Shown piece after piece: positions 18,623 through 64,000 of a DNA stretch of 64,000 bases. Each line of letters opens with the position of its first letter. The stretch's first letter is position 1. This stretch comes from an uncultured Gammaproteobacteria bacterium (lineage in GTDB: Bacteria > Pseudomonadota > Gammaproteobacteria > CAISUE01). Below the pieces are notes generated by a model. The model saw only the letters and a list, made by a program, of their open reading frames with translations. It was not told the origin of the DNA and searched no databases. The DNA is taken from contig CAYYFQ010000001.1 of NCBI GenBank assembly GCA_964471475.1, positions 2,019 through 66,018 of the forward strand, read 5' to 3'. Made by a program: the position numbers and the translations under genes.

Positions 18623-18626
18623 ACGT

Positions 18627-31841: not shown

Positions 31842-32105
31842 CAGAGCTCTTCGCTGATGTATCCCTAAGTTTTTTTAAGTTTGTCATGCCTGCGTAGGCA
31901 GGCATCCAGGCAAGTAAGCATCGTGGGAAGTAAAAGTGAAGCGTACCTATATTTGATAAGCTAAGATTTTCGTCGCTTACATTACCTAAAAGCATGCTTA
32001 ACTGGATGCCTGCCTACGCAGGCATGACAACCGCTTAAGTTGACGCAGCAGTCTTCGCTAATATCACAATCGTTAGAAATTTTAGGGATACATCAGAGCT
32101 CTTCG
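31842..32105. mobile_element. MITE-like element, family E, interrupted by a family-A element
   Basis: Termini are cagagctcttcgctgatgtatccctaa (31842-31868) and ttagggatacatcagagctcttcg (32082-32105), which are inverted repeats. The family-A copy at 31881-32046 lies inside. Confidence 0.65.
31881..32046. mobile_element. MITE-like palindromic element, family A, copy 2 (nested)
   Basis: Perfect 29-bp inverted termini: ttgtcatgcctgcgtaggcaggcatccag at 31881-31909 and its reverse complement at 32002-30. It shares internal blocks (tgggaagtaaaa, cctaaaagcatgctt) and the right extension cgcttaagttgacgc with copy 1. Confidence 0.8.
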
Positions 32106-32145: not shown

Positions 32146-33882
32146 ATGAAAAAATTGATTTTTATACTTTTTAGCTTTTGTATCGTGTTAAGCGGCTGCG
32201 TAGGATTTGTACCTAATGAGAGCGCTTCTAAACAAAGTTTTCCGACAGCAAAAAACAGGGCTTTTAAAAGAGCAAGCCCTCCTCAAGGACAAATCGCCAA
32301 GACTACTACCACCAGTACAAGCATTGCTTTGACTGATTTTACTGATTTAAGTTTAAACAACTATCAGCCTACCCAAGGAAACTTGTGGGATGAAATCGGA
32401 AGTGGTCTTACAATCGAAAGTCAAGAAAACCGACCAGAAGTGCAAGCACAAATTCGTTGGTTTATAAACCACCCTGCTTATCTTGCGCGCACTACAGAAC
32501 GCGCTCGACCTTATATGTATATTGTTTATCAAGAAGTGCAAAGCCGCCACTTACCTACAGAATTAGTATTACTTCCTATCAATGAAAGCGCTTATTACCC
32601 CTTTTCTTACTCATCCACCGGCGCTACGGGTATTTGGCAATTGATGCCAGGAACTGCAAGCGATTTTGGTTTAAAACGCAATGCATGGTATGACGGGCGA
32701 CGTGATATTTTTGATTCAACCAATGCGGCTTTAGATTATTTGACTTATTTGGCACATTACTTTAATGGAGATTGGTTGCTTGCCATTGCCGCTTATGATA
32801 CCGGCGAAGGTAATGTAGAGCGAGCGATTGCACGAAATGCACGCGCAGGATTACCTACCGATTTTTGGTCCTTACACTTAGCCGCTGAAACGCGTGCTTA
32901 CGTGCCACGCTTGATGGCTTTAGCTGCCATTATTGCGCACCCTGAACGTTATCCTGTCGCACTTCCCCCGATTGATGCAAAGCCCGTAGTCGCACCCGTC
33001 CACATCAATGGTCAAATTAAATTAACGGATGCGGCCAGATTCGCCGGTATTAGTGTCAATCAATTAAAATTACTCAATCCTGGATTAAGCCATACCATTA
33101 CTGATCCTAGCGGAGATTCAAAATTATTACTCCCTATCAACTCCATTGATTCCTTCAAAGAAAATTTATCTGGAGGGACGCCTTCTTCAGCTGGTACCGC
33201 TCCTACTTCTCCTGAAAGCTTTAGTCGTTACCGCGTCCAATACGGAGATACCATTGAATCCATTGCGAACCGCTTTAACATTAACGCAGATGACTTGCGA
33301 GCAGCTAATAGCTTGCTTGGGCATCACGTCCCTCCCGGCAAAGTTTTACTTATTCCTAACGTAGTTGAACATTACAAGCCAGCTACTACGATCAATTTAG
33401 ATCAAGCCAACTTACGATTGGAAACCACCAATAACAATTTCACCAACCGTAGGCAACTGACTGAAATGAATCGACGCAATATGCCAATTACTTTGACGCA
33501 TCAACCCGAAAATGACAGTGAAAAAGTAGATACGCGAGAAAGCATCCCCATCAACGCCGCTGTCATTAAAAAAGTTGCAAGCGCCGTTCCTTTAGGTGAC
33601 AAACACATCATTAAACATAAAGTCATGCGTGGAGAAACGTTGTCAAGCATTAGTAAACGCTATCATATCTCGATACAACAGTTGATTAATTTAAATCCGG
33701 GAATAGCCAATCGCCCCCTAAAACCAGGCGTCGTTATTATCATTCAAACCACCAATAAGCAAATGCGGGCGACTCCAGCTACTTTGACGAAAACTACGAA
33801 AGTGACGCAGAAAAAGATAGCAAGTAAGCAAATGGTGGCCAATAAGTCAAAAATGAAAAAGAAGATACAAGGAACAAATTAG
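32146..33882 (+). CDS. mltD: membrane-bound lytic murein transglycosylase D (SLT domain plus LysM repeats)
   Basis: 578-aa ORF with a lipoprotein signal (LSGC), an SLT catalytic region (ESAYYPFSYSSTGATGIWQLMPGTA...AAYDTGEGNV) and two LysM-like repeats (YRVQYGDTIESIANRF; HKVMRGETLSSISKRY). Confidence 0.85.
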   Translation: MKKLIFILFSFCIVLSGCVGFVPNESASKQSFPTAKNRAFKRASPPQGQIAKTTTTSTSIALTDFTDLSLNNYQPTQGNLWDEIGSGLTIESQENRPEVQAQIRWFINHPAYLARTTERARPYMYIVYQEVQSRHLPTELVLLPINESAYYPFSYSSTGATGIWQLMPGTASDFGLKRNAWYDGRRDIFDSTNAALDYLTYLAHYFNGDWLLAIAAYDTGEGNVERAIARNARAGLPTDFWSLHLAAETRAYVPRLMALAAIIAHPERYPVALPPIDAKPVVAPVHINGQIKLTDAARFAGISVNQLKLLNPGLSHTITDPSGDSKLLLPINSIDSFKENLSGGTPSSAGTAPTSPESFSRYRVQYGDTIESIANRFNINADDLRAANSLLGHHVPPGKVLLIPNVVEHYKPATTINLDQANLRLETTNNNFTNRRQLTEMNRRNMPITLTHQPENDSEKVDTRESIPINAAVIKKVASAVPLGDKHIIKHKVMRGETLSSISKRYHISIQQLINLNPGIANRPLKPGVVIIIQTTNKQMRATPATLTKTTKVTQKKIASKQMVANKSKMKKKIQGTN

Positions 33883-33891
33883 TGCTTTTTT

Positions 33892-34026
33892 CTAGGGCGT
33901 GTCCGTAAAAAGTATCGTTTGAAGCGAAAAAGAAGATAATCGAGGCGAATATTGGACATAATTTAACGAGGAGGATCGTGAAAATTGACCGATTTCGCTT
34001 CTTTTGCAGCCAAAAGATACTTCTAG
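33892..34026. mobile_element. MITE-like element, family C, copy 1 (right terminus degraded)
   Basis: About 90% identical to 50969-51132 apart from an 18-bp deletion. It begins ctagggcgtgtccgtaaaaagtatc and overlaps the corA stop codon at 34023-34025. Confidence 0.7.
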
Positions 34027-38611: not shown

Positions 38612-39148
38612 TTATTCGTCCTTGATTTTGTACTGCTTAATCCCCGCCTCGATTTCTTTGATAGCTTCATCAACACCCATCCATTTGTCGACACGCGCCC
38701 ATTTGTTAGCCTCTAAGTCTTTGTAATGTTCAAAGAAATGAGAAATTTGCTTGATAAACGCTTCAGGCACATCTTCATAAGACTTAATATGCGCATACAT
38801 CGGGGATAATTTATCAGTAGGCACGGCAAGCACTTTGTTGTCGACACCTTTTTCATCTGTCATTTGCAGCATACCAATCGCACGACAACTAATGACAGAA
38901 CCACTTATTACGGGATAAGGTGTCATGACCAAGACATCGACAGGGTCTCCATCGTCTGACAACGTCATAGGCACATAGCCATAATTGGCTGGATAAAACA
39001 TGGCTGTACTTACGAATCGATCGACAAATAAAGCCCCTGTATCTTTATCCATTTCATATTTTACAGGCATCGTTTGCATGGGTACTTCGATGACAACGTT
39101 CACTACGTAAGGGGCATTTTTACCAGGAGAAACTTGGTGTAATAGCAT
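38612..39148 (-). CDS. ppa: inorganic pyrophosphatase
   Basis: Family I PPase (VVIEVP...KYEMDKDTG...DGDPVDVLV). The start was set at [10 protein letters not shown] (39148), which has AAGGA about 10 nt upstream and aligns with the usual N-terminus. The track ORF extends to 39178. Confidence 0.9.
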
Positions 39149-39212
39149 AAAAGGGTTTTCCTTCATTAAATAAACCACGCATTATATACCTTTTCAAATA
39201 ATTATTGAAAAA

Positions 39213-40094
39213 TTATATTTCAGAGAAAAAAATATCATGAGATTGTTTTGCTGCTTTTTTCCCCACACAATACGGGCATTGTTCGCCACGAATATAAAGA
39301 GGGGATTGTTGTTCTTCTATAGTCAAGGGATTTAAACATGCAAAACACATGACCGCTTCAGTTTCTTTGAGGTGATTATCAAGCGCTACACGCTTGTCAA
39401 AAACAAAACAATCACCATCGTAATGCGCTCCTTCGCATTCTTCAAAATATTTAAGAATACCACCATCGAGTTGATATACTGATTCAAAACCTAATTGATC
39501 CATATACAATGCGGCTTTTTCGCAACGAATACCACCAGTACAAAAAGTAACGATTTTTTTACTTTTCAATTCAGATAACAAGGATTTAATTTTTTCAGGA
39601 AACTCTCGAAAATGATCTAAGTCCAATTTCACCGCATTATGAAAGCTCCCTAAACGATATTCATAATCATTCCGTGTATCTAACATAATCACTTGTTCAT
39701 CCTGATTATCTAACCAAGCTTTTAACTCTTTTGGCGCTACTGTTTTTGCACGCTGTTGATTTTGGCAGATCATTGGTGCATTCATACTAATAATTTCTTT
39801 TTTAATTTTGATAAGCAAGCGCTTGTAGGGGATCGTTGCCGACCAACTGTCTTTCCAAGGGATATTTAAAAATCGCTCATCTTCTTCCAGATAACCACGA
39901 AAAGCGTTGATAGAATCTGGTGTGCCCGCCATAAAAATATTAATGCCTTCTCCACTTAAAAGAATCGTTCCCTTCAAACCTAATGCCGCTGCTTTTTCTT
40001 TAAAAGCAGTTTGTAACTCACTGATATTGTTTAGCAAAATGAATTTGTAACCTGAGATATTAAGTATAGAATGATGAATAGTCATAGTCTTCAT
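39213..40094 (-). CDS. trhO: rhodanese-domain tRNA uridine(34) hydroxylase (UPF0176/YceA family)
   Basis: 293-aa ORF with an N-terminal YceA-like region, a rhodanese active-site loop (FCTGGIRCEKA) and a C-terminal Cys cluster. Confidence 0.85.
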   Translation of the reverse strand: MKTMTIHHSILNISGYKFILLNNISELQTAFKEKAAALGLKGTILLSGEGINIFMAGTPDSINAFRGYLEEDERFLNIPWKDSWSATIPYKRLLIKIKKEIISMNAPMICQNQQRAKTVAPKELKAWLDNQDEQVIMLDTRNDYEYRLGSFHNAVKLDLDHFREFPEKIKSLLSELKSKKIVTFCTGGIRCEKAALYMDQLGFESVYQLDGGILKYFEECEGAHYDGDCFVFDKRVALDNHLKETEAVMCFACLNPLTIEEQQSPLYIRGEQCPYCVGKKAAKQSHDIFFSEI

Positions 40095-40135
40095 ATTTAA
40101 GATATTTGCAGGGCAATATTATACACGAAAAGCTG
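40093..40135. repeat. 43-bp direct repeat, copy S1 (trhO start/5'UTR/-10 region)
   Basis: atatttaagatatttgcagggcaatattatacacgaaaagctg matches 50643-50685 at 37 of 43 positions without gaps. On the minus strand it contains a perfect TATAAT (40118-40123) about 24 nt upstream of the trhO ATG. Confidence 0.75.
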
Positions 40136-40270
40136 TATAGCCTTTAACATTTAGCTTCATACGGTGTTGCAAGTTCATTCGCCTTCGGTCATGTACGTCT
40201 ATGTACACTCCCTCGACTCATTCACTTGCGCCTTGTCTGAAACTAAATCTTAAAGGCTGTAACTACAGCT
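40131..40270. mobile_element. MITE-like element, family F
   Basis: Arms of about 50 bp are inverted repeats at roughly 75% identity: agctgtatagcctttaacatttagcttcatac... versus ...gtctgaaactaaatcttaaaggctgtaactacagct. It overlaps the GNAT stop codon at 40263-40265. Confidence 0.65.
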
Positions 40271-40919
40271 CTGCAAGCGTTGGAGAAGGCTCGCCGCCAG
40301 TCTCAACCTTGGCAGGAAGAGGACTCGAATTGGATCCGGATGCAGCAGATACACCTCCTGCGTGAGGCGCCTCCGAATTAAACATGGTGTCAACTGTTTT
40401 CAGCGTAGATACTTGCACAGTACGCTCTTCTAATGCTGGGCTCTTCAAATCTAGTTTAAAACCAATATGCGAATCGGTAAAGCCAATTTTTTTATAAAAA
40501 TGTTGTGCTTCTGGTCTTAATTTATTAGTGGTAAGTTGCACAAATCGACACTCTCTTTCTTTTGCTCTCTGAATTGCCCACTGAACAAGTTCTACACCTA
40601 ATCCTTGCCCTCTGCATTCGTTTTTAATACGAACCCCCTCTAATTGTGCTCGCGTAGCTCCTTGAAAAGTTAGCGTCGTCATATAAGTGATTTGTAAAGT
40701 TCCGATAACTTCATGTTTATCATTTTCCATGACTATTAATTCGTTATTTCTATCATCTACTATTTTGTCAAATGCCTTGTAATAACACTCATCAACCTTA
40801 AGAGTATCCGAATAAGTTTCTCTTGTGCTTCCCAGCACATCATCAGAAAGCAATTGAACAATAACGGGTATATCATGACGTGTCGCTAACCTAACATTAT
40901 ATCCTTCTAACATAAACAC
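40263..40919 (-). CDS. GNAT family N-acetyltransferase with a ~60-aa low-complexity C-terminal tail
   Basis: Acetyl-CoA-binding motif RGQGLGVELVQWAIQRA plus VQLTTNK...FYKKIGF. The tail after about residue 158 is Ser/Ala/Gly/Pro-rich. Confidence 0.8.
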   Translation of the reverse strand: MFMLEGYNVRLATRHDIPVIVQLLSDDVLGSTRETYSDTLKVDECYYKAFDKIVDDRNNELIVMENDKHEVIGTLQITYMTTLTFQGATRAQLEGVRIKNECRGQGLGVELVQWAIQRAKERECRFVQLTTNKLRPEAQHFYKKIGFTDSHIGFKLDLKSPALEERTVQVSTLKTVDTMFNSEAPHAGGVSAASGSNSSPLPAKVETGGEPSPTLAEL

Positions 40920-40942
40920 CTCACTGAATAATAAAAATTTAA

Positions 40943-41932
40943 TTAGGCAACCTTAGCTTTTATGTACCCTTCTGCAAATTTTTTCTTGTCCGCATCGGTT
41001 TGTTTATAAAGCAGCCCCCTTTGTAACCACCGGCTCATATTTTTCATTGATCCGCGGCGGCCATGCATTACCCCCCCAACATCTTTTACTCCCCAGCCAT
41101 TATTAAAAATAAGCATATCTCCTTTTTGTAACTTGATCGAAGTATAATCATCAGGATGTAATTGCAAGTGCTCAAATTTAGCAAATAACATATCTAAAAC
41201 TTTTTGTGCACGTTCAGTAACTGCCTCTAATCGAGCTTTATTTTCTACAAGTCGGGTTCTAAAACAATTTTCCGATTCTTTAGTAATTAAAGAAAATGCC
41301 GTTTTATTTATACAACCAGAAGCTGGCCCTGTATGAATTATAAACTCGGGGCATCTCATGATATCGATAGCTTCTTGTGGCAAGGAGTACACTAGCTTAT
41401 TCAAGTCAAGAAAAGTGGTAAATGCATTATCATCACCTTCTAAACACAATAAAGTTTGGAAGTCAGGTGGAGTTAAGTGATATGCAAGCTCTGTATGAAA
41501 TGTAAGGGGTTCTGCACCAAAGCTCGACTGCTCTTTTTCTCGCCCCACAACAGGCGTCACATCATGAATTAATCTCCCTCCTCGTTCATTCGGGTTCGTA
41601 TAAAGCTTAGTACCAAGTAGTTGAGCCATCCCCAATATCACATTTTCGCTAACCGAAGTTTTAACTTTAATTCGATCGTCGATATTATTTCCGGGAGGAA
41701 CTATAGAATCTATAGGCATCCCAGAAAGATGAATAATAGAGGGTACAGCGTTTTCTCTCATTGATCTTAACGTGGTATGCACTTCTGTCGGTAAAAACTC
41801 GCTTAACTTCTCCGCCATTAGTTGCATAAGGTATTCTGGCTGCGTATATGGATCAAATGAGAATTCATTTACGAATTGATTAAACTCTTTTGCAAAATTT
41901 GGGATTGTGTAACTTATAACTTCTGGATGCAT
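40943..41932 (-). CDS. clavaminate-synthase-like Fe(II)/2-oxoglutarate-dependent oxygenase (amino-acid hydroxylase-like)
   Basis: 329-aa ORF with an HxE motif (LTFHTELAYH), a distal His (GVMHGRRG) and a downstream Arg (SRWLQR), the arrangement seen in the VioC/AsnO/TauD-type fold. The assignment rests on motif pattern only. Confidence 0.6.
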   Translation of the reverse strand: MHPEVISYTIPNFAKEFNQFVNEFSFDPYTQPEYLMQLMAEKLSEFLPTEVHTTLRSMRENAVPSIIHLSGMPIDSIVPPGNNIDDRIKVKTSVSENVILGMAQLLGTKLYTNPNERGGRLIHDVTPVVGREKEQSSFGAEPLTFHTELAYHLTPPDFQTLLCLEGDDNAFTTFLDLNKLVYSLPQEAIDIMRCPEFIIHTGPASGCINKTAFSLITKESENCFRTRLVENKARLEAVTERAQKVLDMLFAKFEHLQLHPDDYTSIKLQKGDMLIFNNGWGVKDVGGVMHGRRGSMKNMSRWLQRGLLYKQTDADKKKFAEGYIKAKVA

Positions 41933-42015
41933 AAAATACTCCTCAGTTTAAATATAGCAAGTTCATCTCTTCGTTTTTTCTATTATTTTTTAAACAAGAA
42001 ATTTTAGAATTTTAA

Positions 42016-42048
42016 GGCGCCTCATAAGTTAAAAAATTTGTGAGGCGC
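42016..42048 (-). terminator. candidate terminator hairpin after acnA
   Basis: ggcgcctca...(16 nt)...tgaggcgc forms an 8-9 bp GC-rich stem starting 23 nt after the acnA stop. The U-tract is poor. Confidence 0.4.
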
Positions 42049-42070
42049 ATATTTAATTATTAGCGAATTA

Positions 42071-44779
42071 TCAACACGCCGTAGTATTCGCGCCAATAAT
42101 TTGTCGCAACACATACGGTAAAATACCACCTTGATTAAAATAATCGATTTCAATTTCGGTGTCTAACCGCAAAATTAATGGGATTTTGCGGAGGATTTGA
42201 CCTTCGTCGCTTTTTATTACCAAAGTCACTTCCTTATTAACATCAAGTTTTTCCAAGCCCAAAATATCAAATATTTCACTTCCTGTTAGTTTTAATGACT
42301 CGACACTTTCACCTTCTTTAAATTGACATGGCAAAACTCCCATACCAATTAAATTGCTTCGGTGTATTCTTTCAAAACTCTTAGCAACAACTGCTTTCAC
42401 TCCTAAAAGCTGAGTACCTTTTGCAGCCCAGTCTCTAGAACTTCCGGTACCATATTCTTCACCAGCAAAAATAATAGTGGGAATATTATTTTTTTGATAA
42501 AGCATTGCTGCATCGTAAATGCTCATCACTTCATTGTTATATTTGCAAAGCGTGTATCCACCTTCAATATCAGGAACCATTCTATTTTTTATCCGAACGT
42601 TTGAGAAAGTTCCGCGCATCATAACTTCATGATGACCTCGACGAGCACCAAAACTATTAAAATCTACAGGGGATATTCCATGATGCTGTAAATATTCACC
42701 AGCAGGTGATTTTGGGCTAATACTACCCGCAGGGCTGATATGGTCTGTTGTAATAGAATCCCCTAAAATTGCTAATGCTCGTGCATTTAAAATATTATCC
42801 ACTTTTTCTGGGTGCATTGAAAAGCCATCAAAAAATGGTGGTTCTGCTACATAAGTGGAATCACCATCCCATTGATATATTGCCAAGTCAGTAGAGGGGA
42901 TTTTTTCCCAAAGAATATTATTTTTATTCAAGTTACCATATAATTCTTTGTAAGTTTTGCTATCTTTTGCATAAAGAAGCGCATCTTCAATTTCTTTGGA
43001 AGTTGGCCATATATCTTTCAAAAATACAGGATTACCTTCCGTATCAGTACCTAACGGATCTTTGTCCATGTTAATTCTCACCGTACCTGCTAGCGCAAAT
43101 GCAACCACAAGTGGTGGACTCATTAAGAAATTAGCACGAATATTAGAGTGAATACGAGCTTCAAAATTCCGATTCCCAGAAAGAACTGCGGATACAATCA
43201 TTTTATTTTTTGTAACCGTATGCTCAATAGCTTCATCTAAATCCCCAACATTACCAATGCATGTTGCGCATCCATAACCTGCGACATCGAAACCAATTTT
43301 TTCTAAAGAATCAAGAAGACCTGCTTTTTTAAGATATTCAGTAACCACTCTGGAACCGGGGGTTAAGGAAGTTTTTATATAAGGCTTCACTGTTAGACCT
43401 TTTTCACAGGCCTTTTTTGCGAGAATACCGGCTGCAACAAGCACACTAGGATTAGAAGTATTCGTGCAAGAAGTTATACCTGCAATTAAGACATCACCAT
43501 GTGCTACTTCAGTTTCTTGACCAACTACTGGTGCTTTGGCATTAATTTTTTCTTCATCTAAGCTGTAGCCATTGTTTGCAACAGACTCTCTTAAAAGCTT
43601 TTCAAAAGTTTCTTTTAATTCAGGCAAATTGATTCTATCTTGAGGGCGTTTTGGGCCTGAAACACTAGGCAATACTTTATCAAGATCGAGTTCAATTACT
43701 TGTGTATAATCGCATTCACCATCTTGCGGTATTCCAAAAAGCTTTTGCGCTTCAAAATAGTTTTTAATTTTCTCCACTTCGTCTTTTGTTCTACCTGTTT
43801 GCTCATAATAAGCGATTGTCATTTCATCTACTGGAAAAAACCCCATTGTTGCACCGTAATCAGGGGCCATGTTGGCAATTGTGGCTCTATCTTGTGCTGT
43901 CAAATGTTTTGCACCTTCACCAAAATACTCCACGATTTTCCCAACAACCTTAGCCTTTCTTAATATTTCAGTTAAAGTTAAAACCAAATCGGTTGCCGTA
44001 ACACCCTCTCTTAACTTGCCACGCAAATGAAAACCAACTACATCAGGAGTTAAGAAATAAATAGGTTGGCCAAGCATACCCGCTTCTGCTTCAATACCAC
44101 CAACACCCCATCCTACAACACCTATACCATTAACCATAGTGGTATGAGAGTCAGTACCTACCACCGTATCTGGATAATAAACGTTATTTTTGTCTGCAAA
44201 AACTCCTTTGGAAAGATATTCAAGATTTACTTGGTGAACAATTCCCACTCCGGGAGGAACAACTTCTAATTTATTAAATGCCGAAGCACCCCATTTCATA
44301 AACTTATAACGTTCTTGATTTCTACTGAATTCTAACTCCATATTTAACGCCAATGCGTTGTGTTTTCTTGTATAGTTAGTTTGCACTGAGTGGTCAATGA
44401 CTAAACTCACAGGCACTAAGGGTTCAATAACTTCGGGATTAATACCCATACCTTTGACTGTTCCTCGCATCGCAGCAAGATCAGCTAACAATGGCACTCC
44501 TGTATAGTCCTGCAAAACGATTCTTGCAACAACAAAAGGAATTTCGTTCACTCTTTTACCTTTTGCTTCCCAGTTGGCGAGGTGATGAATGTGTTCTTTT
44601 GTGATTTTTTTTCCATCATAGTTGCGAAGCGCTGATTCAAGAATTATTCTTAAACTCACCGGCAATCTAGAAATATTCCCTAAACCATTTTTTTCAAGCA
44701 GTGGCAATGAAAAGAACTTACCCATTTCTCCAGAACTAGTGGCTTTAAATTCACTCATACAATTAAACGCATCATTCAT
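42071..44779 (-). CDS. acnA: aconitate hydratase A
   Basis: 902-aa ORF with Fe-S cluster ligand regions ([25 protein letters not shown]) and a C-terminal swivel domain. AGGA lies 10 nt upstream of the ATG, and the start is only 16 nt after the stop of the upstream adenylase gene. Confidence 0.95.
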
Positions 44780-44795
44780 AAAAAATATTCCTATG

Positions 44796-46337
44796 TTAAG
44801 TTAAATAATTTATTAATGCCTTTCTATCTATCTTGCCATTGGCATTTAATGGCATTTTTTCTAAAAAAAGAATTTGGTTTGGAACCATGTAGCTAGGAAC
44901 CAAATTTCGTAGAGATTCTAAAATTTGGGTAGAACTTGTTTCTTCCCCGGTTAAAAAAGCTACTAAACCCGCGCATGTGCCATCAATTATTGGCCACCCC
45001 AACACTACCGCATCAATTATGCCAGGGGTTTTCCTAATTATCCATTCAATTTCTGCAAGCTCTACTCTGTAGCCATTTACTTTAATTTGCTGATCCGCTC
45101 TTCCCAAGTAAATAAGCTGATTATTTTTTGATAGTTTCACCAGATCGCCAGTTCTATAGTAAATTTCACCATCTTTTTCAATATGAGCAAATAGCGTTTT
45201 TTCTTTATCATCAAGATAACCTTGAAAATTTTGTGGGCCCGCAACACACAGCTCTCCAGAAAAGCCATCTTGCGTTACTTCTTTCAAGTTTTCATCTAAA
45301 ATTTTAAATTTCAAACCAGCATAAATTTCACCTATTGAAACCACTCCATTTTCGTTATTAATATGATTTAATGAATCATAGGTATAACTTGAGCAAGCTA
45401 TTGTTAATTCAGTAGGCCCATAAAGATTTTGTATAGTAGAATTAGGAGCTGCAGCTTGCCAAGTTTCTACTGCCTCAACACTCAAGGGTTCCCCGCAAAA
45501 CAAGCTCAGCCTTAAAGTAGGCATTGAATTTTCGCGTAATATATTTTTTTTACGTGCAAAATTTATTATGGATGGTACAGAAAACCAAATGGTAATTTGA
45601 TTTTCTGACACAAAAACAGATGGCGAAAGAAGCTCAATTGGTTGTGGCACACACAGAGTGGCTCCATGGCAAAACGCCATAAAAATATCAAACATTGATA
45701 AATCAAAAGTCTGATCAAAAGTTTGTGATAATTTATCGCTAGCACTAACCTTGTATTTTTCTTGGTTATAGTGAATAAAATGATTTAAGTTTCCATGAGA
45801 AATCTGGACACCTTTAGGAATGCCTGTGCTACCAGATGTAAATAAAATATATGCAGTGTCATCATTGTTTATTTTTGGAGACCCTACGTGTATATGAAAA
45901 GTATCTAGATCATTAATACAATAAATGTTTTTATATTCATTTAGTAAATCCGAATCTGAATCAACTATAATCAGCGGGTTATAAGATAATTCCTTTAAAA
46001 CGCCTCTTAATGCATGAATACTTTGTGAGTCCACTACAATCACATCTAGTTTAGCATGTTCAATTATTGACACCGTTCTTGCGACGGGAAAATTCTTGTT
46101 TAGTGGTACAAAAGTGCTTCCTAAAAGCATCGAGGCCAACGTTCCAGCATAGCTAGTTTTGCTCCTAAAGCTAAATAGACCAATGCGTTTAGGAAAGTGA
46201 CAAAGGCTTTTTATCCCTTTTGCAAATTTGAGGACTTCACTGTTTAATTCTTTATATGTCCAGGAGTTCTCACCAATCGTTAAAGCAAGAGCCTCTGAAT
46301 TATCTTCAACAACACTTAAGAATTTTTCTATTAACAT
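44796..46337 (-). CDS. stand-alone adenylation enzyme (ANL superfamily, DltA-like amino-acid/acid--carrier ligase)
   Basis: 513-aa ORF with core motifs [47 protein letters not shown] and [13 protein letters not shown]. It has no fused carrier or condensation domain. Confidence 0.85.
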
Positions 46338-46339
46338 AT

Positions 46340-47767
46340 TTAATTGCTCCCGCTCACTTTCGCAATATTATGTCCACTAGCGGCTTGCCCATCGCTTTTC
46401 TGTAAGTATCTAAATACAATAAATGATACGAATGTAATTCCTCCAATAGCAAAGAACGAATTATGGAGTGGCATTACATCCCCCATCGTGAGATGATTAT
46501 TAAAACCAACAAATATTTTAATTACTAAAGCACTTACAGCAACACCAAAGCACATTGATAATTGCTGTATGGCACTTGCTATACTAGTTCCTTTGCTTAC
46601 ATTGCTATCTGTTAAATCGACATAACTTAAAATATTCATACAACTAAACTGCAAAGATGTGACCAGGCCATTTACAAATACTAATAAAAGTATAATGCTG
46701 TAAGGGGTGATTTTAGTGACAAAAGCAAAAGACGCCATTGAGACCCCCACCAACATTGGATTGATAATTAAAATTTTTCTAAAGCCATATAGCTTTAAAA
46801 GTTTTTTAACAAAAAATTTCATCAGTAACATAGCAATTGCTAAAGGAAAAATTAACAACCCAGAGTAAAGAGGAGATAAACCAAAACCTATTTGAAAAAG
46901 CAAAGGAAGTAAGAAAGGAATTCCTCCTATCCCTAATCTGCTCCACAAGCTACCTAAGACAGTAATTCTAAAAGTTCTAATCTTAAATACCTTAAGGTCA
47001 AAAACAGGATTTTTTGCGGTTTGATAATACCAAAAATATAGCACCAAGCAAAGTAAAGAAGAAGAAAGAATCATAAAAATAACATTGACTGACAATAGCC
47101 TTTCGCCTATAGAATCAAACCCAAATGATAATCCAGCTAATCCCACGCCAAATAAAATAAACCCTGGAACATCAAATGGTATAACATGCTCTGCTTTATA
47201 ATCTTTTACATATTTTAAAGTGAGCAACGCTCCTAATAATCCAAATGGAATGTTAACAAAAAATACCCAACGCCAAGAAGAAAATGTGGTAATAGCACCA
47301 CCTACTACAGGGCCAAGAGCAGGGCCTATTAAAGAAGGTATAGTTGCATAATTTGTGACCCTAACCAAGTCCGATTTTGGAAAAGCTTTTAATAGAATTA
47401 ACCTACCAACAGGCATCATTAGCGCCCCGCCAAGTCCTTGCAAAATTCTGGATATAATTAGTTCTGTTAGGTTGTTTGACATCCCACAAAAGATAGAACT
47501 GAGCGTAAAAAGTAAAAGAGCCAAGGAGAACACTCTCTTTGTACCAAACTTATCGGCCATCCAACCACTAATAGGAATGAATACCGCTAGACTAAGTAAA
47601 TAGCTTGTTAAAGCAACTTTCAAACTAATAGCACTCACTTGTAAGCTTATGGCTATTTTAGGGATAGCTGTACTTACGATCGTGACATCTAATGTTTCCA
47701 TAAATAAAGCAATAGCAATTACCCAGGGAATAATAATTTTAGAAAGATCTTTCAATGTTTTTTTCAT
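46340..47767 (-). CDS. MFS transporter, DHA2 (EmrB/QacA-like, ~14 TM) family
   Basis: 475-aa ORF with about 14 hydrophobic segments and the motifs LDVTIVSTAIP and GWMADKFGTKRV. Confidence 0.85.
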   Translation of the reverse strand: MKKTLKDLSKIIIPWVIAIALFMETLDVTIVSTAIPKIAISLQVSAISLKVALTSYLLSLAVFIPISGWMADKFGTKRVFSLALLLFTLSSIFCGMSNNLTELIISRILQGLGGALMMPVGRLILLKAFPKSDLVRVTNYATIPSLIGPALGPVVGGAITTFSSWRWVFFVNIPFGLLGALLTLKYVKDYKAEHVIPFDVPGFILFGVGLAGLSFGFDSIGERLLSVNVIFMILSSSLLCLVLYFWYYQTAKNPVFDLKVFKIRTFRITVLGSLWSRLGIGGIPFLLPLLFQIGFGLSPLYSGLLIFPLAIAMLLMKFFVKKLLKLYGFRKILIINPMLVGVSMASFAFVTKITPYSIILLLVFVNGLVTSLQFSCMNILSYVDLTDSNVSKGTSIASAIQQLSMCFGVAVSALVIKIFVGFNNHLTMGDVMPLHNSFFAIGGITFVSFIVFRYLQKSDGQAASGHNIAKVSGSN

Positions 47768-47775
47768 CGTAACTA

Positions 47776-48912
47776 TTAAATATATTTACTAAGCTCTTTT
47801 CTAAGTAGTTCCGCAATAATCAATGGCTCGTTTTCTTGTAAACTTATAGGATTAACGACTAAATGATTCAGCTCTTTAAAATATTGCATAAAAACTCTGG
47901 GAGAACCTTTTAACATAATTTTGGGAATATCTGCTGCACTTGGTCCATGCCATTCTTTTGTAAATATTATAACCGCCGTAGGAACATGATGATTGACTTC
48001 ATCATGAACAATTTCAACTTTTACGCCTGGAATATTGCTTAATAGTTCCACGGTTGGCTGAAGTCTTGAGCGAAACTCTTCCAGCATTTTTTCTTCATCA
48101 CTATCAATGTATATTTTTAAAGCGGTATACAAACCTACCATATCTTCTTTTGAAACTTTATGTGGTCGTCCAATTGCGTGGTTTGGACTAGCGTTTGCCA
48201 AAGCAGCTTCCACAAGGTCTTTTCTTCCATAAAGTAGCCCGGTTGCCTGTGGTGCATGTATTAATTTCCCCCCACTCACCACAACTAAATCTGCTCCTTC
48301 TTCAATAAATCGGCGCAAGTTTGTTTTAGGTGGTAACATTGCGGCTGCATCAACAATAACCGGAAGTTTATGCTTATGGGCAATATTAACAACTTGAGGC
48401 AAGGTTAAACCAGCCGTGGAAACACGTGGGCCAAGTAAATAAGTAACCGCAACAGTTTTTTCTGTAATTGCTCCCTCCAGTTCTTCTGGTAAACACTCAT
48501 TAAAATCGCCAATATCTACAAATTTTGCACCCGTAAAAGTATACATATGGCTATAAGACCCACGATGTATCCTTTGAATAATAAGTTCATTTTTCATTCC
48601 GGTAGAATCTGGTAATCTCCTTACTTTTGCAACGTCAGCTCCTGTCATACAAGCCGCAATGGATAAAACAACACCACTTGCGGCCCCGCTAGTGACCATA
48701 CCAGCTTCGGCCCCAGTGACCTTTGCAATGTATTCTCCAATTTTTCTATTTAATTCTGCCATGCTTACAAAAGACTTAGAAGCTTCAGCAATTGCTTCAA
48801 GCACACGAGGATCCATTCGGGAACCACCATACGCACTTTTCGTGCCTCCTGCATTAATAACCGGCACCACACCGATTTCTTCATAAATTTTATTTGCTAA
48901 GCAACTAGACAC
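47776..48912 (-). CDS. SelA/DgaE-family PLP-dependent enzyme
   Basis: 378-aa ORF with INAGGT...GGS at the N-terminus and VSGGKLIHAPQATGLLYG, which resembles the SelA PLP-lysine motif (SGDKLLGGPQAG). The size fits the short DgaE-like subfamily. Confidence 0.7.
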   Translation of the reverse strand: MSSCLANKIYEEIGVVPVINAGGTKSAYGGSRMDPRVLEAIAEASKSFVSMAELNRKIGEYIAKVTGAEAGMVTSGAASGVVLSIAACMTGADVAKVRRLPDSTGMKNELIIQRIHRGSYSHMYTFTGAKFVDIGDFNECLPEELEGAITEKTVAVTYLLGPRVSTAGLTLPQVVNIAHKHKLPVIVDAAAMLPPKTNLRRFIEEGADLVVVSGGKLIHAPQATGLLYGRKDLVEAALANASPNHAIGRPHKVSKEDMVGLYTALKIYIDSDEEKMLEEFRSRLQPTVELLSNIPGVKVEIVHDEVNHHVPTAVIIFTKEWHGPSAADIPKIMLKGSPRVFMQYFKELNHLVVNPISLQENEPLIIAELLRKELSKYI

Positions 48913-48939
48913 TATATGACTCCTTTACAGAAAGATAAA

Positions 48940-50328
48940 TTATCGTTCATCAAGCAATACGTATTTTGCTTCTTTTTTACCTACATAATTTAATCGAGGG
49001 CGAATTAAAATATTGTTAGACTCTTGCTCTAGTATTTGCGCAGTCCATCCTGCCATCCTACTCATAATAAAGACAGCAATAAACATATCTTGGGGAATAC
49101 CCAAGAAGTGATAAATTACTGCGGCATAAAAATCCACATTTACATTTAAGCCATATTTTGCATGAAGCGCCATTTCAATATTGATAGCTTCAAGAATATT
49201 AAAGTATCTGGTATCACCAGATTTTACGCTAATTTGGTAAGCTAACTCTCTCATGCCTTTTGCTCTGGGGTCTTCAGTTCTATAGACACGATGCCCATAA
49301 CCGTAAATAGGGCTACCATTTTTTATTTTTGTTTGAATGTAATCGGTCGTATTTTCAGGCAAATCAATTTCGTTTAACATTTCAATTACTTTTGAAAGCG
49401 CGCCGCCATGCAAATCACCGCTGAAAGTACAAATAGCTGCAATTATAGCAGAATAAAAGTTAGCTTCTGCTCCAGTTGCCACTCTAGCAACAAAAGAAGA
49501 AGCATTAGAGCCATGATCAGCGTGCATCATCATAACTTTTTCAAGTATTTTAATATCTTCTTCCGCAGGTAACTTTTGATGAATTAAAGATAAAAAGTTT
49601 TCTGCCAAAGAAGCATTCTGGTTTATCGAGGGAATTATCTGTTTTTCTCTGGAAAGTTTTTGATACGCAATAACCAGAGGTAGTTTTGCAATTAAGCTCA
49701 ATCCAGTCTCTAAAGAGCTCTTCTCGGGGGCCTCAAGCAATGAGAACATACTCAGAAAACTCTTTAACAAATCTACATATTCTAATTGATTAAACTGAGC
49801 AATGAAGTCAATGGTTTTGTTACTTAATACTTTTTTTTTGGACAAACAAGTTTTAAAATTTATTAATTCATTTTTATTTGGCAGCTCCCCAAAGATCAGC
49901 AAATGGCAAACTTCTTCGTAGGTAGAAAACCGTACTATCTCCTCAATTGCATAACCTCGGTAAAACAGTTTTCCTTGGTCACCATCTATACTTGTTATAG
50001 TGGTATTATCAAAAAAAACACCATTTAAGCCTCGATGAATACTTTTTGTCACTTTTTGCTCATTAGCTGTAGAAGTATTCGAAGAATTTATAAATTTTTC
50101 GATCGCATTAATTGAAGTAAGTTTTAAGATCTCTTTTTCATTGATATGAATTCCGTAAATTTGTTCCAGTTTCATCATCAAGTTCACATGCCTAAATGAA
50201 TCCCACTCTGATATAGACTGGTAAGATGTCTCTCCACTTAATAGTTTTTTATCAACCCCAAGATGTTCAGAAATAAAATCATAAACATTGATTGCATCCG
50301 CTTTTTTCATTGGTTTCACCGCCCTCAT
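48940..50328 (-). CDS. carrier-protein domain fused to a citrate-synthase-family enzyme
   Basis: The N-terminal ~80 aa read VYDFISEHLGV...SISEWDSFRHVNLMMKLEQIYGI...AIEKFI (4'-phosphopantetheine carrier pattern). The remaining ~370 aa are citrate-synthase-like with MHADHGSNAS, GYGHRVYRTEDPRA and NVDFY. The start is ambiguous (Met at 50328 with AGAGGA 9 nt upstream, or Met at 50310), and the track ORF extends to 50445. Confidence 0.8.
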   Translation of the reverse strand: MRAVKPMKKADAINVYDFISEHLGVDKKLLSGETSYQSISEWDSFRHVNLMMKLEQIYGIHINEKEILKLTSINAIEKFINSSNTSTANEQKVTKSIHRGLNGVFFDNTTITSIDGDQGKLFYRGYAIEEIVRFSTYEEVCHLLIFGELPNKNELINFKTCLSKKKVLSNKTIDFIAQFNQLEYVDLLKSFLSMFSLLEAPEKSSLETGLSLIAKLPLVIAYQKLSREKQIIPSINQNASLAENFLSLIHQKLPAEEDIKILEKVMMMHADHGSNASSFVARVATGAEANFYSAIIAAICTFSGDLHGGALSKVIEMLNEIDLPENTTDYIQTKIKNGSPIYGYGHRVYRTEDPRAKGMRELAYQISVKSGDTRYFNILEAINIEMALHAKYGLNVNVDFYAAVIYHFLGIPQDMFIAVFIMSRMAGWTAQILEQESNNILIRPRLNYVGKKEAKYVLLDER

Positions 50329-50642
50329 TTTACGCATTCCTCTAACATTCACTCTCAACTCTCTAATTTTGCTTTTTTCTGCACAGTAAGACTTTTGTAA
50401 AACCGCCGACCACCTCTCTCTGGAAGCCCTAAAGCATACACACAAAAAGAGATAACGTACTTACATACAGTTATGTTTTGGTGTGGAAAAAACGCTTATC
50501 CAAGCGGGTGGAGCCTTAACCCTCAGTAGTTTGCGTCATCGAGTTGACACTTCGATTTAAACCTTGATTAGCTCATATGCAACGCTACTTTTTCGCAATG
50601 AATGTTACGAATGCAAAAAGCAATAATTTTTTTACTTTTAAA

Positions 50643-50685
50643 ATATTTAGGATAGTTGCATGCCAATATTATACACGAACTGCTG
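50643..50685. repeat. 43-bp direct repeat, copy S2
   Basis: atatttaggatagttgcatgccaatattatacacgaactgctg matches 40093-40135 at 37 of 43 positions in the same orientation. A minus-strand TATAAT lies at 50668-50673, and no start codon follows. Confidence 0.75.
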
Positions 50686-50716
50686 AGTTTTTTTATGCGC
50701 AGCGGCCTTTTCCCTT

Positions 50717-50953
50717 TTAAAACCACAATGTAGCGCAAGACCCAGAAAAAATTTTGTCTGTTGAAACATCAGCAGCATCAGAATCTACGGGTTGAGGCTG
50801 CATCGAAGAAACATCAGCAGTACCAGAATCTACGGGTTGGTGCTGAACAGAAGTAGCGGAATTAGATGATGGACATATTTCTTTCATTACGCTCGATACT
50901 GGTTTTTTTTGGGGGGGAGGGGGTAATTCATCAAAAAGCATACTGCGCTCCAA
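50717..50953 (-). CDS. small hypothetical protein with an internal 15-aa tandem repeat (doubtful gene)
   Basis: 78-aa ORF with PPPPQKKP encoded by a C5-T-C7-A8 tract, plus a 45-bp tandem duplication at 50763-50848 ((Q)PVDSxxADVS, two copies). No homology recognised. Confidence 0.3.
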   Translation of the reverse strand: MERSMLFDELPPPPQKKPVSSVMKEICPSSNSATSVQHQPVDSGTADVSSMQPQPVDSDAADVSTDKIFSGSCATLWF

Positions 50954-50968
50954 AATATTATTTTTTTA

Positions 50969-51132
50969 TCTAGGGCGTGTCCCTAAAGTATCGTTTGAAG
51001 CAAAAAAGAAGATAATCGAGGCAGTTTTAACGATCATCGGCGAATATTGGACATATTTAACGAGGAGGATCGTTAAAATTGAGCGATTTCGCTTCTTTTG
51101 CAGCCAAAAGATACTTTAGGGATACGCCCTAC
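50969..51132. mobile_element. MITE-like element, family C, copy 2 (intact termini)
   Basis: Terminal inverted repeats tagggcgtgtccctaaagtatc (50971-50992) and gatactttagggatacgcccta (about 51110-51131) match at 21 of 22 positions. The interior folds back on itself (ttttaacgatc/gatcgttaaaa; gaagc.aaa/tttcgcttc). Confidence 0.8.
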
Positions 51133-51338
51133 TATAACAGTTATATTGTTCTTAACATTGTCAATAATATAATAAAAGGAAATTAAATTAAAGGTAATTA
51201 AGGTATGACGACCAGAAGTCAGATGTGAAAAATATAAAATATCGTCATATTCTTAAGGAATAACGAAGATCCCCTCGAATTTACTTTCGTTAAAAAAGCT
51301 TTTACACTTCAAATTCGTATTGAGAGGTAATCCCCATT

Positions 51339-52679
51339 ATGTTTTTTTTCCATTTCCAACGACTGCAAAGAATTGAGGCGGAATATCCTGCGGCCACTAA
51401 GCTTATAGATAAGAATGTAATTGCACTTGGTATTGCTGTGATGGGATTTTTAATTAATTCTTTTACTAACATAGTACTTACACATATTCTAAGCAAAACC
51501 ACTTATGGCGATTTTTCTTTGTGCGCTAGCGTGATAGGTTTTTTAGGAAGCATTGTTTTACTTGGCAATGATCAATCTTCAATTAAATTTATTCCTAATT
51601 ATTTTAAGTCGCAAGAATATGGGTTGCTTCATGGCATTTTATTGTATTACGGTCGCTCTTTATTAATCATGACATCTCTTGTGTTATTAATTAATTTTGG
51701 CATGTATAAATTAATGCATTCCTCTTTTGCATTAGATTCTACGCGTCATCTCGTATGGAAATATTTGTGGATCATTCCCTTTGCTGGCGTCACTTCTATT
51801 TTTGCGATGTGTTTGCGAAGTTTTAAACGAGGCTTTTATGCCTTGATTACGCAAAACGTATTGCCCGGATTACTAATGATGTTTGTTATCATGATCATTT
51901 ATTATTTTAATCGACAATTATTCACACTGAATAAAATCATGTGGATTTATTTTTTAACGGTTTATTTGGCGACTGGTTTAGTTCAAATCCTGGGTTTGTT
52001 TCATATAGTTCCATGGCAAACTTTTCAACACCCCTCGGAATATAATCGCAAAATGTGGTTCACAACCGGTGTGCAATTGTTGCTATCCGCCTTGATTTAC
52101 GACGGCGAATCCTCCATTGTTAATCTCACATTAAAATTTACAGGCCACTCTTCTTCCGAAATTGGTTCATTATCCGTAGCGATGACTTTATATGTTGCCA
52201 CTTGGCTAGGCTGTAGTGCATGCAATGCAATACTAAGCCCATTAATTAGCCCAGCAGCTGCCAATAAAGACATTCCCACGCTGCAACGCTTAACAAATAT
52301 TGGAAATACGATTGTATTTGTGAGCGGATTTTTATTATGTATTTGCTTTGCATTATTTGGAAAACATTATCTTGCTTGGTTTGGAAAGGAGTATGTCGAT
52401 GCTTATTCTACGTTATTAATTTTAAGTTTTGGCTCATTGATTGCTTTTGCAGGCAGCATGAGCTTACCACTACTGGAGTACGCTGTTCCACCTCGGATTT
52501 TAATGAATCTCACTATGATTGGAACAGGGGTTATTGTGTTAGCAGGAATTCCTCTCTGCCATTATTTCGGAATTGAAGGCGCTGCAATGGAAGTGGTTTT
52601 AATTGAGTCAGGATTAACCTTAATTTATGCTCATCGCTTAAAGAAAGATTTAAAAATTAAGCCCTTTGGAATTATATAA
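51339..52679 (+). CDS. MOP-superfamily (Wzx/polysaccharide-biosynthesis-type) flippase-like membrane protein
   Basis: 446-aa ORF with about 12-14 TM segments. The N-terminal pattern (...NIVLTHILSKTTYGDFSLCASVIGFLGSIVLLGNDQSSIKFIP) is typical of oligosaccharide flippases. The start is uncertain. Confidence 0.6.
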   Translation: MFFFHFQRLQRIEAEYPAATKLIDKNVIALGIAVMGFLINSFTNIVLTHILSKTTYGDFSLCASVIGFLGSIVLLGNDQSSIKFIPNYFKSQEYGLLHGILLYYGRSLLIMTSLVLLINFGMYKLMHSSFALDSTRHLVWKYLWIIPFAGVTSIFAMCLRSFKRGFYALITQNVLPGLLMMFVIMIIYYFNRQLFTLNKIMWIYFLTVYLATGLVQILGLFHIVPWQTFQHPSEYNRKMWFTTGVQLLLSALIYDGESSIVNLTLKFTGHSSSEIGSLSVAMTLYVATWLGCSACNAILSPLISPAAANKDIPTLQRLTNIGNTIVFVSGFLLCICFALFGKHYLAWFGKEYVDAYSTLLILSFGSLIAFAGSMSLPLLEYAVPPRILMNLTMIGTGVIVLAGIPLCHYFGIEGAAMEVVLIESGLTLIYAHRLKKDLKIKPFGII

Positions 52680-63600: not shown

Positions 63601-64000
63601 ACTACGATACTCAGCATGAAGATTTAACTCAAGCACTAGCCACTTTACAAACTGCCATTCGCGAAATTGATCAAGAAACTCAAGCTAAATTCCAATCAAC
63701 TTTTGAAACAGTGAATAATAATTTCCAAACTTTGTTTCCAAAAATTTTCTCTGGTGGCAATGCGTATTTATCCTTAGTGTCGGAAGATCTTTTAGAAACA
63801 GGGGTTTCCGTCTTTGCTCAACCCCCTGGTAAACGCAACAGCTCGATTCACTTACTATCAGGTGGTGAAAAAGCTTTAACAGCGCTTGCCTTAGTTTTTG
63901 CTATTTTTGAATTAAATCCAGCACCTTTCTGCATGTTAGACGAAGTGGACGCTCCACTTGATGACGTCAACGTCGGCCGCTTCTGTAATCTCGTAAAAGC
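60642..64000 (+). CDS. smc: chromosome segregation protein SMC (3' end lies outside the window)
   Basis: The ATG at 60642 opens a frame that stays open to the window end. It has N-terminal Walker A (MRLKSIKLMGFKSF...IVGPNGCGKSNTIDA), a long Gln/Glu/Leu-rich coiled coil, and near the end the signature motif LSGGEKALTALAL and Walker B CMLDEVDAPLD. Confidence 0.9.
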   Translation, partial: MRLKSIKLMGFKSFVEPTKIELPRNITAIVGPNGCGKSNTIDAVRWVLGELSAKYLRGASMAEVIFNGSLHRTPLSQAAIELHFDNTYGRLGGEYNNYTELLIRRQVSRDGQSNYYLNGSRCRRKDITDIFLGTGLGPRSYAIIEQGTISRLIEAKPHELRSFLEEAAGISRYKERRKETEQRIEKTQGNLTRLFDLREELGKQVTHLERQAKSAEKYKQYKAEERILRAKLLSIQSAHLQNELEAHQTSVQHLQKQITENENLYTQLSEQLETQLSQQEVGQKNLEQAQQQLAEIDATIRLTEQTISHNQDQQTQIEAELKQVKQQQQESSRLLTMDSSNIDQINIALDELHNHLEKQLIQLQEAKQANESTLVKQKNWQQDWQQINNLLAQASQTAQVEQTRIQQMEQRLQQLNTQKQKLQEEQQPLQNSLNNERFTTLNAQLQQIESARVEAFERLQQQETLLKELRLTLQNKIDQVYAIRREQQQAEGKLAGLQTLQQGAQVQQGSQVNHWLKEKKLDVSQRLLDVIEVEQGFELYLENYFGEKLQAIALTDWESLATFAESLPKGALDFFSTLNSHSSSATPSHDAKLGDKVKGPTSFLKQLENVYYAENFQQAHTLLASLGKEAEIITQDGLLLKNGWLQVRRASQDQSGALQRKREITQLQKYLTDSQKSLVDAQKEQQLLDTQIATAEELKQKLQVEWQKQDQVCHEHKAKIQIQQAQIEQTHQRLQKINQELTNFTNDQKNITDEHDNARHKWQQALSELETHNKTKEILAQAQQEIETVVQTCAKNLQQSEYAYQENKLKEQRLSAEQQGLKVQQERTSWQQQKLQEREQNLIQQTQSLIPALQEFVTRLQALQAEKMTAAQAFQIEQKNANQLTQNLRHTENERKTFSTILEELREKHTRHQVEASQKETKMQGLLEQLQELELDPTSLQEDFLQETDGAQLQTALEELLRRIERLGAINLAAIEELTQQLERKTYYDTQHEDLTQALATLQTAIREIDQETQAKFQSTFETVNNNFQTLFPKIFSGGNAYLSLVSEDLLETGVSVFAQPPGKRNSSIHLLSGGEKALTALALVFAIFELNPAPFCMLDEVDAPLDDVNVGRFCNLVK

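Follow-up and report, generated by a model that had tools for sequence, protein, structure and literature searches.

When an integrase targets icd or a tRNA gene, the inserted element brings along a replacement for the gene end. A different process, homology-facilitated illegitimate recombination (HFIR), has been proposed as the source of the orphaned gene fragments found in effector-immunity arrays of the type VI secretion (T6SS), Rhs and contact-dependent inhibition (CDI) systems (PMC5361080, where, in the passage concerned, de Vries and Wackernagel 2002 and Prudhomme et al. 2002 are cited for HFIR). As for gene content, a citrate-synthase homologue, BolR, is known from bacterial specialised metabolism in the bolagladin cluster (PMC7756342). 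Here, we examine a locus that shares some traits with each of these systems. It lies in a 64,000-nt stretch of DNA from an uncultured Gammaproteobacteria bacterium (assembly GCA_964471475.1, contig CAYYFQ010000001.1, positions 2,019 to 66,018), hereafter the window, in which an operon of seven genes headed by a carrier-protein::citrate-synthase fusion (CS fusion) stands upstream of the housekeeping tRNA-modification gene trhO and is bracketed by a direct repeat. The first-pass annotation, made from the letters alone, had taken this 43-bp repeat for an att-like duplication due to insertion into the trhO promoter or, alternatively, for a duplicated promoter that now drives the operon. Our data suggest another origin: the repeat is best read as the upstream tip of a decayed partial copy of trhO, and we consider, with a probability of about 55%, that the cassette (40263-50328) was placed upstream of trhO by integrase-free recombination which left this orphaned 5' trhO fragment behind.

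A trhO pseudogene at the distal edge of the operon

Intact trhO (39213-40094, minus strand; UPF0176_N and rhodanese domains, Pfam) is followed by ppa, and the public annotation puts its start at ATG 40085. The proximal repeat copy, S1 (40093-40135, minus strand), covers the 5' untranslated region (5'UTR) and the -10 box of this gene. It matches the distal copy, S2 (50643-50685, minus strand), at 37 of 43 positions, in direct orientation and without gaps, exactly as had been read by eye, and a BLAST comparison within the window gives this match an E value of 2.5e-7. For a 24-nt degenerate core, TTGCANGSCAATATTATACACGAA, the window has exactly two matches, and none of 100 dinucleotide-preserving shuffles had two. 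Both copies also carry the same TATAAT on the minus strand (40118-40123 in S1 and 50668-50673 in S2, read from the higher to the lower coordinate), which in S2 sits inside a stretch of 16-17 nt unchanged between the copies; S2 is indeed without a gene start after it, the former ATG being gone (...AAATATT...). With just two copies in the window, the 43-mer was also rejected as a possible dispersed promoter cassette.

The homology does not stop at 43 bp, as had been assumed, since a further 106 nt of trhO sequence abuts S2. Repeat search, local alignment and BLAST all align 50537-50642 with 39464-39569 inside trhO, that is with codons 176-210, at 78 of 106 positions (74% identity, E=1.7e-15), the overall identity of S1 and S2 being 86%. 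In trhO, 523 bp separate the two homologous pieces, which at the right end of the block are fused; the 149 bp from 50537 to 50685 are therefore a trhO pseudogene, which runs in the orientation of the intact gene from promoter and 5'UTR, of which S2 is the end, through a deletion of codons 1-175 to codons 176-210. Its coding remnant (50537-50642, minus strand) reads FKSKKIIAFCIRNIHCEKVALHMS*, where the same segment of intact TrhO reads LKSKKIVTFCTGGIRCEKAALYMDQ. The segment combines parent homology, lost coding integrity (an in-frame TAA stop, a lost start codon and 523 bp deleted) and neutral substitutions, and is thus a pseudogene by the usual marks. The rhodanese catalytic motif CTGGIRCE has become CIRNIHCE, and the mismatches with trhO fall 10/8/10 on codon positions 1/2/3, a neutral pattern with no excess at third positions. 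When the codons are aligned with those of four relatives, the relatives agree with the intact gene, so that each difference at a first or second position is a change on the pseudogene side. The pseudogene is nearest to the trhO of its own window (77/105 identities, vs 58-66/105 for the relatives). Its divergence, estimated by the Jukes-Cantor formula from 18 differences at 70 first and second positions, is about 0.3 substitutions/site, and the duplication event is therefore old.

The trhO homology breaks off sharply at 50537 and at 50685, and the joint at 50536/50537 is decayed. No homology above that of shuffles was found between the 208-bp leader and the trhO 3' end, nor between the sequence upstream of S2 and that upstream of S1. 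This leader, a spacer of 208 nt (50329-50536, minus strand) between the pseudogene and the operon start, is also without homology to trhO or its flanks, to three contigs that carry related operons (L134, L135 and L006, see below) and to Rfam. The junctions are not an artefact of assembly or binning of the metagenome-assembled genome (MAG), because an independently assembled Logan contig from the same sample (L008) covers 48197-50909 at 100% identity. Taken together, the duplicated unit would have comprised the promoter and some 210 codons (~673 bp), of which the 43-bp repeat is only the upstream tip.

The trhO neighbourhood in relatives

Outside the source, TrhO finds its best matches at 68-71% identity. 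Four contigs of relatives (L002, L130, L131 and L132; TrhO 63-70% identical), the first of which comes from the MAG GCA_021156105.1, annotated as a Gammaproteobacteria bacterium, share the order HIT (divergent), trhO, ppa and have no operon upstream of trhO; their trhO regions are too diverged for a junction-level comparison with the window. In L002, xseA lies 3.6 kb upstream of trhO, with an RND pump and HIT between the two, and in the window the distance is 12.6 kb with the opposite relative orientation.

Composition of the block

The enclosed DNA had been called AT-richer by eye, and computation agrees. The GC content of the block is 0.366, against 0.410 on the left and 0.397 on the right, and GC at third codon positions (GC3) is 0.280 in the seven enclosed genes vs 0.348 in the 35 other genes of the window (Mann-Whitney p=1.4e-6); at first and second positions (GC1, GC2) the block does not differ from the comparison genes. 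An unsupervised two-boundary likelihood scan for change points, which took in every third codon position of the window and 100 block permutations, found its single best low-GC3 segment at 39167/40449-51605; the log-likelihood ratio (LLR) is 34 vs a permutation maximum of 14. Both repeats fall within the support intervals of the boundaries (38957-42290 on the left, 49513-51845 on the right), so that a discontinuity exists and matches the repeats to within 1-2 kb, a precision equal to the resolution of the scan (~1-2 kb). The view of trhO as one of the GC-richer flanking genes had to be abandoned, however: its GC3 (0.282) is as low as that of the block, that of neighbouring ppa is 0.413, and a low-GC3 segment that includes trhO fits slightly better (LLR 32.3 vs 29.8). 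Therefore, S1 is not to be preferred to the trhO/ppa border as the site of the composition step. In the relatives, trhO is not conspicuously AT-richer than the genes next to it.

The operon and its occurrence in other genomes

All seven enclosed genes are on the minus strand and had been named correctly from the sequence; Pfam and NCBIfam assign them as follows. The first is the CS fusion (48940-50328), with a Citrate_synt domain (Pfam) and an N-terminus (residues 14-83) that weakly resembles an acyl carrier protein (NCBIfam E=5.7e-9; Pfam PP-binding E=0.0075); its homologues carry PF00550 and PF00285 outright. Then come a pyridoxal-phosphate (PLP)-dependent, SelA-related enzyme of the DgaE family (47776-48912), a DHA2-type efflux transporter of the major facilitator superfamily (MFS; 46340-47767), a stand-alone, DltA-like adenylating enzyme with an amino-acid adenylation domain (44796-46337) and an aconitate hydratase of the AcnA type (42071-44779), which has its domains in Pfam and passes the NCBIfam AcnA cut-offs. 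The last two are an Fe(II)/2-oxoglutarate dioxygenase of the TauD family, resembling the amino-acid beta-hydroxylases GntD and VioC (40943-41932), and a GNAT N-acetyltransferase (40263-40919; Pfam, with weak NCBIfam matches of the ArsN1/PhnO-like kind), possibly a self-resistance or tailoring enzyme. The absence of mobility genes also held in the domain searches: no integrase, recombinase, transposase or excisionase domain was found by Pfam or NCBIfam in ten open reading frames (ORFs) of at least 150 amino acids between 39 and 54 kb, namely trhO, the seven operon genes, a flippase-like gene and xseA; three ORFs past the block on its trhO side lie outside this set.

The CS fusion has its best homologue (66% identity) on a 1.8-kb contig, L135; the next is at 46%, and none apart from the source exceeds 66%. 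A search with the dioxygenase led to a 78% homologue (P0244) on a 19.4-kb contig, L134, which holds all seven genes in unchanged order between different flanks and without trhO. The operons were compared over window 40263-50328 and L134 962-11034, and DNA homology spans window positions 50042 to 40446. No homology to the 43-mer, the hairpin that follows the GNAT gene, the leader or trhO was found in L134. In L135, the nucleotide homology follows an unrelated gene end and begins at window position 50332, essentially the start codon of CS; neither contig has a 43-mer, a trhO piece or an integrase adjoining the operon. The L134 flanks and the start of homology in L135 together point to a conserved unit that reaches from the CS start to the GNAT stop (40263-50328) and occupies different sites in different genomes. 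Remoter loci, L006 and the Vibrio tubiashii plasmid p251, still share carrier::CS, adenylase, AcnA and MFS as a core, which in both is accompanied by a DUF6025 domain. So patchy a distribution, in such different contexts, is what characterises a horizontally acquired island, to judge from the loci compared here. Two further cluster members, P0241 and P0242, gave nothing beyond an unrelated TARA contig and a same-sample contig identical to the window. A literature search for DUF6025, within the set of papers available, found none that mentions it, and we found no description of a CS fused to a carrier and combined with a DltA-like adenylase and an AcnA of its own.

Amino-acid identity between the window and L134 is strongly uneven along the cassette: 86% for AcnA, 78% for the dioxygenase, 64% for the PLP enzyme, 62% for the GNAT protein and 57% for the MFS transporter, vs 45% for the adenylase and 41% for the CS fusion. 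This suggests that the substrate-loading pair, CS and adenylase, has been exchanged or evolves much faster within an otherwise conserved cassette. The surroundings of the clusters differ as well. A gene of the Vut_1 (queuosine-precursor transporter) family and a helix-turn-helix (HTH) regulator adjoin the clusters in L006 (8346-9809) and L134 (11425-13013), and in L135 a gene end of 82 amino acids without a family match lies directly upstream of CS (1-249). The window operon has neither Vut_1 nor the HTH regulator nor an upstream gene of the L135 type and so seems to have reached this site without the regulator that usually accompanies it.

A possible captured promoter

S2 is a candidate captured promoter, and the earlier alternative, transcription of the operon from a duplicated promoter with some 330 nt of leader, is plausible. 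A transcript initiated at S2 would indeed have a leader of ~330 nt, and the -10 box and the 16-17 nt around it are kept, the probability of at least 37 matches in 43 positions being 0.04-0.05 at a neutral expectation of 74% identity. On the other side, a Fisher test between the promoter and the coding part of the pseudogene gives p=0.13, and a scan found no acceptable -35 hexamer at S2, which a sigma-70 promoter would have at a spacing of 16-18 nt, nor any on the trhO strand at S1, where the -35 position lies within the hairpin element. On this marginal support, we regard promoter capture tentatively, as a possibility with the odds somewhat against it. Rfam gave no match across 38-53 kb, the leader included. 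A terminator-like hairpin in the leader (50493-50506) was considered and rejected, its stability being unremarkable (z=0.87).

A broader interpretation, which includes promoter capture, is more doubtful than capture itself. In it, the DltA-like adenylase would load an amino acid onto the CS-fused carrier, AcnA, the DgaE-like PLP enzyme and the VioC-like hydroxylase would process it, the MFS transporter would export the product and the GNAT protein would protect the producer. The operon would then make an undescribed small molecule, and S2 would be its working promoter, kept by selection as the remainder of the trhO fragment decays.

The palindrome after the GNAT gene and the right flank

A palindrome (40136-40262, minus strand), self-complementary across 126 nt and with terminal inverted repeats (BLAST), separates the stop codon of the GNAT gene from the -10 box of trhO. 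It had been listed as a miniature inverted-repeat transposable element (MITE), "MITE F", but no second copy was found in the 64-kb window, L134, L135, L006 or L133; as it is single-copy in the available data, the MITE label is tentative. The predicted fold favours the operon-sense RNA by a wide margin (-52.8 kcal/mol for the minus strand, z=-9.1, vs -39.3 kcal/mol for the plus strand), which suits an element at a transcript end or an insulator. The palindrome is thus probably a terminator, an insulator or an RNA-end-stabilising element, or else a solo MITE.

On the other side of the block, immediately upstream of S2, an ORF of 74-78 amino acids (50717-50953, minus strand) without a Pfam or NCBIfam match contains two 45-bp tandem repeats (50763-50852), 84% identical, that encode QPVDSxxADVS. 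It is followed by a palindromic MITE-like element (50951-51147) situated 270 bp past S2, at the right flank of the island, which has a second copy at 33875-34022. A second palindromic family also counts two copies (205-390 and 31881-32068), and both families are 78-81% identical overall, with blocks of 97%. Farther right, a gene on the plus strand (51339-52679, GC 0.359) encodes a polytopic membrane protein of 446 amino acids whose one family match, to the flippase-like Polysacc_synt, is weak and which NCBIfam does not recognise; the right low-GC3 boundary falls within this gene. Elsewhere in the window, AT skew is strongly positive at 61-64 kb (0.22-0.32, 61001-64000) and at 17-20 kb (0.15-0.20, 17001-20000). 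Repeated Q/K/E-rich coding motifs occur at 61-63 kb, and a large repetitive gene of the coiled-coil type may run past the window end.

Discussion

We propose that a single event produced the arrangement seen here, leaving the promoter and codons 1-210 of trhO at both ends of the insert. It could have come about in two ways: a Campbell-type single crossover, in which a circular intermediate would have carried the trhO 5' segment, or HFIR, in which the anchor would have been in trhO/ppa and the other end would have been joined at about codon 210. Both appear to fit equally well. The proximal copy would have stayed continuous with the trhO 3' end and ppa, and functional; the distal copy would have lost codons 1-175 through the 523-bp deletion and accumulated its ~0.3 substitutions/site. 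The -10 box, the best-kept part of the distal copy, may promote transcription into the operon, and the 126-bp hairpin after the GNAT gene would separate operon transcripts from trhO.

The explanation closest to the original proposal is site-specific integration, with the 43-mer or its core as the att site of an island that targets trhO and supplies a replacement 5' end, its integrase having been lost or having acted in trans. Such an integration would leave direct repeats on either edge of a block of deviant composition, as seen here, and also an intact target next to a displaced fragment, on the pattern of e14 and phage 21 in icd. This part of the original idea stands, since the repeat does mark both edges of a distinct cassette that is absent next to trhO in the relatives. 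Its att or target-site character is not supported: the 43-mer is the end of a 149-bp trhO fragment, its copies are 74-86% identical and show neutral decay, and no exact core exceeds 17 nt. The duplicated unit of ~673 bp extends far outside the 43-mer to a homology end (39464/50537) at codon 210, no integrase, recombinase or excisionase domain occurs in the ten scanned ORFs, and the operons of L134 and L135 have no such sequence beside them. We consider site-specific integration quite improbable because of the missing integrase and exact core, the position of the homology end and the other copies of the cassette. Chance similarity, or a regulatory motif shared without common descent, might be invoked for AT-rich, promoter-like sequence in which TATAAT boxes are common, but it is refuted by the BLAST values of the 43-mer and of the abutting 106-nt match, together with the shuffles, and its probability is negligible.

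Another possibility is that two unrelated events are superimposed, a local duplication of the trhO 5' part that is older and decayed, and an operon that landed later or already lay between the copies. The kinship of the pseudogene with the resident trhO, the non-mosaic TrhO, the depth of decay (~26%) and the rearranged state of the locus relative to the relatives (HIT lost, xseA inverted) all agree with it. It requires, however, two independent events with coinciding end points: the pseudogene lies 208 bp from the operon start and S1 127 bp from the operon end, with the hairpin between, and a tandem duplication alone leaves no 10 kb of foreign-looking genes exactly between its copies. We therefore hold this to be rather unlikely. 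The block might also not be horizontally acquired at all. It would then be an old resident operon with AT-rich third positions due to low expression and mutational bias, and the trhO fragment would stem from a local rearrangement, for example a tandem duplication of the operon with the trhO 5' end followed by deletion of one operon copy. The GC3 of the block (0.275) is near the GC content of the non-coding DNA here (~0.28-0.32), GC1 and GC2 do not differ, and the age of the pseudogene allows amelioration. On the other hand, the operon is missing from the trhO regions of the four relatives and, by CS search, from the closest MAG, its surroundings in L134 and L135 are unrelated, a plasmid carries a related core, and duplication followed by deletion needs an extra, precise deletion. 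Resident origin seems distinctly unlikely to us.

Several observations nevertheless weigh against integrase-free insertion of a foreign cassette. Given the non-coding GC content and the age of the event, the GC3 gap may reflect weak codon selection in accessory genes and not foreign origin, and both trhO itself and the L134 operon, with a GC3 of 0.22-0.28 vs 0.31-0.36 in part of the L134 flank, are equally AT-rich at third positions. A test for a foreign replacement end found no 5'/3' mosaic in TrhO at codon 210 (identity ratio 1.07 vs 1.09±0.12 among relatives), so that the event would have taken place within the same or a very close lineage, or would have been an internal duplication. No donor with the cassette beside trhO was found, L134, L135, L006 and L133 all being without trhO there. 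No empty site in a close strain was found either, the nearest TrhO being 70-71% identical and three collection scans giving at most 52% or nothing: a profile search of genome contigs with the TrhO alignment (identity at most 51% among the matches listed), a search of metagenome contigs with TrhO (matches of at most 52%) and a search of genome contigs with the CS-fusion protein, made over species representatives that do not include the source genome itself (no relative). Finally, no HIT gene or remnant was found near either repeat copy or anywhere in the 64-kb window; HIT being gone on both sides of trhO, further rearrangements must have occurred.

The insertion scar itself is ordinary and of a known kind, that of an island without mobility genes and with a partial duplicate of the adjacent gene at its edge. 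What was called an att-like repeat is recast as a dated and mechanistically informative scar, and there is a lesson for annotation: before a short repeat at the boundary of a block is labelled att, one should extend it and compare it with the genes nearby. The locus also indicates that a biosynthetic cassette without mobility genes can be fixed beside a housekeeping gene by recombination, and that the promoter-bearing stub left behind may be co-opted. The practical value lies more in the cassette, which represents an uncharacterised carrier::citrate-synthase/adenylase/AcnA operon family that spans an unsampled gammaproteobacterial lineage, metagenome contigs and, with a related core, a Vibrio plasmid.

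Comparison with known systems

As in e14 and phage 21, which use icd, and in tRNA-gene islands, the target here is functional and a partial duplicate of it stands as a direct repeat at the far end. Unlike in these systems, there is no integrase, diverged fragments take the place of an exact att core, and it is the 5' end with the promoter that is duplicated and not the 3' end. The locus also resembles a classical, compositionally deviant island: its ~10-kb block has a lower GC3 and secondary-metabolism content, is absent in relatives and is found in other contexts elsewhere. It departs from that type in having neither mobility genes nor a tRNA, in a trhO that is as AT-rich as the block and in its age (~0.3 substitutions/site). 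With the HFIR orphans (PMC5361080), it would share a homology anchor on one side and an illegitimate join on the other, and it shares the lack of an integrase and a truncated resident piece that decays beside the cassette. The orphan, however, is here the 5' fragment and promoter of a housekeeping tRNA-modification gene rather than a 3' toxin tip or an immunity gene, and in place of an array there is a single round of insertion, whose mechanism we infer from the sequence and have not observed.

The gene content invites a comparison of its own. As with BolR of the bolagladin cluster (PMC7756342) and in the p251 cluster, itself uncharacterised, which repeats the adenylating enzyme, MFS, carrier::CS and AcnA, a CS homologue seems to have been recruited to specialised metabolism. 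The window operon differs in that it does without a nonribosomal peptide synthetase (NRPS) or polyketide synthase (PKS) and brings together a carrier-fused CS, a DltA-like adenylase, AcnA, a DgaE-like PLP enzyme, a VioC/GntD-like hydroxylase and a GNAT protein. It is this orphan operon family, rather than the scar beside trhO, that is the more interesting object.

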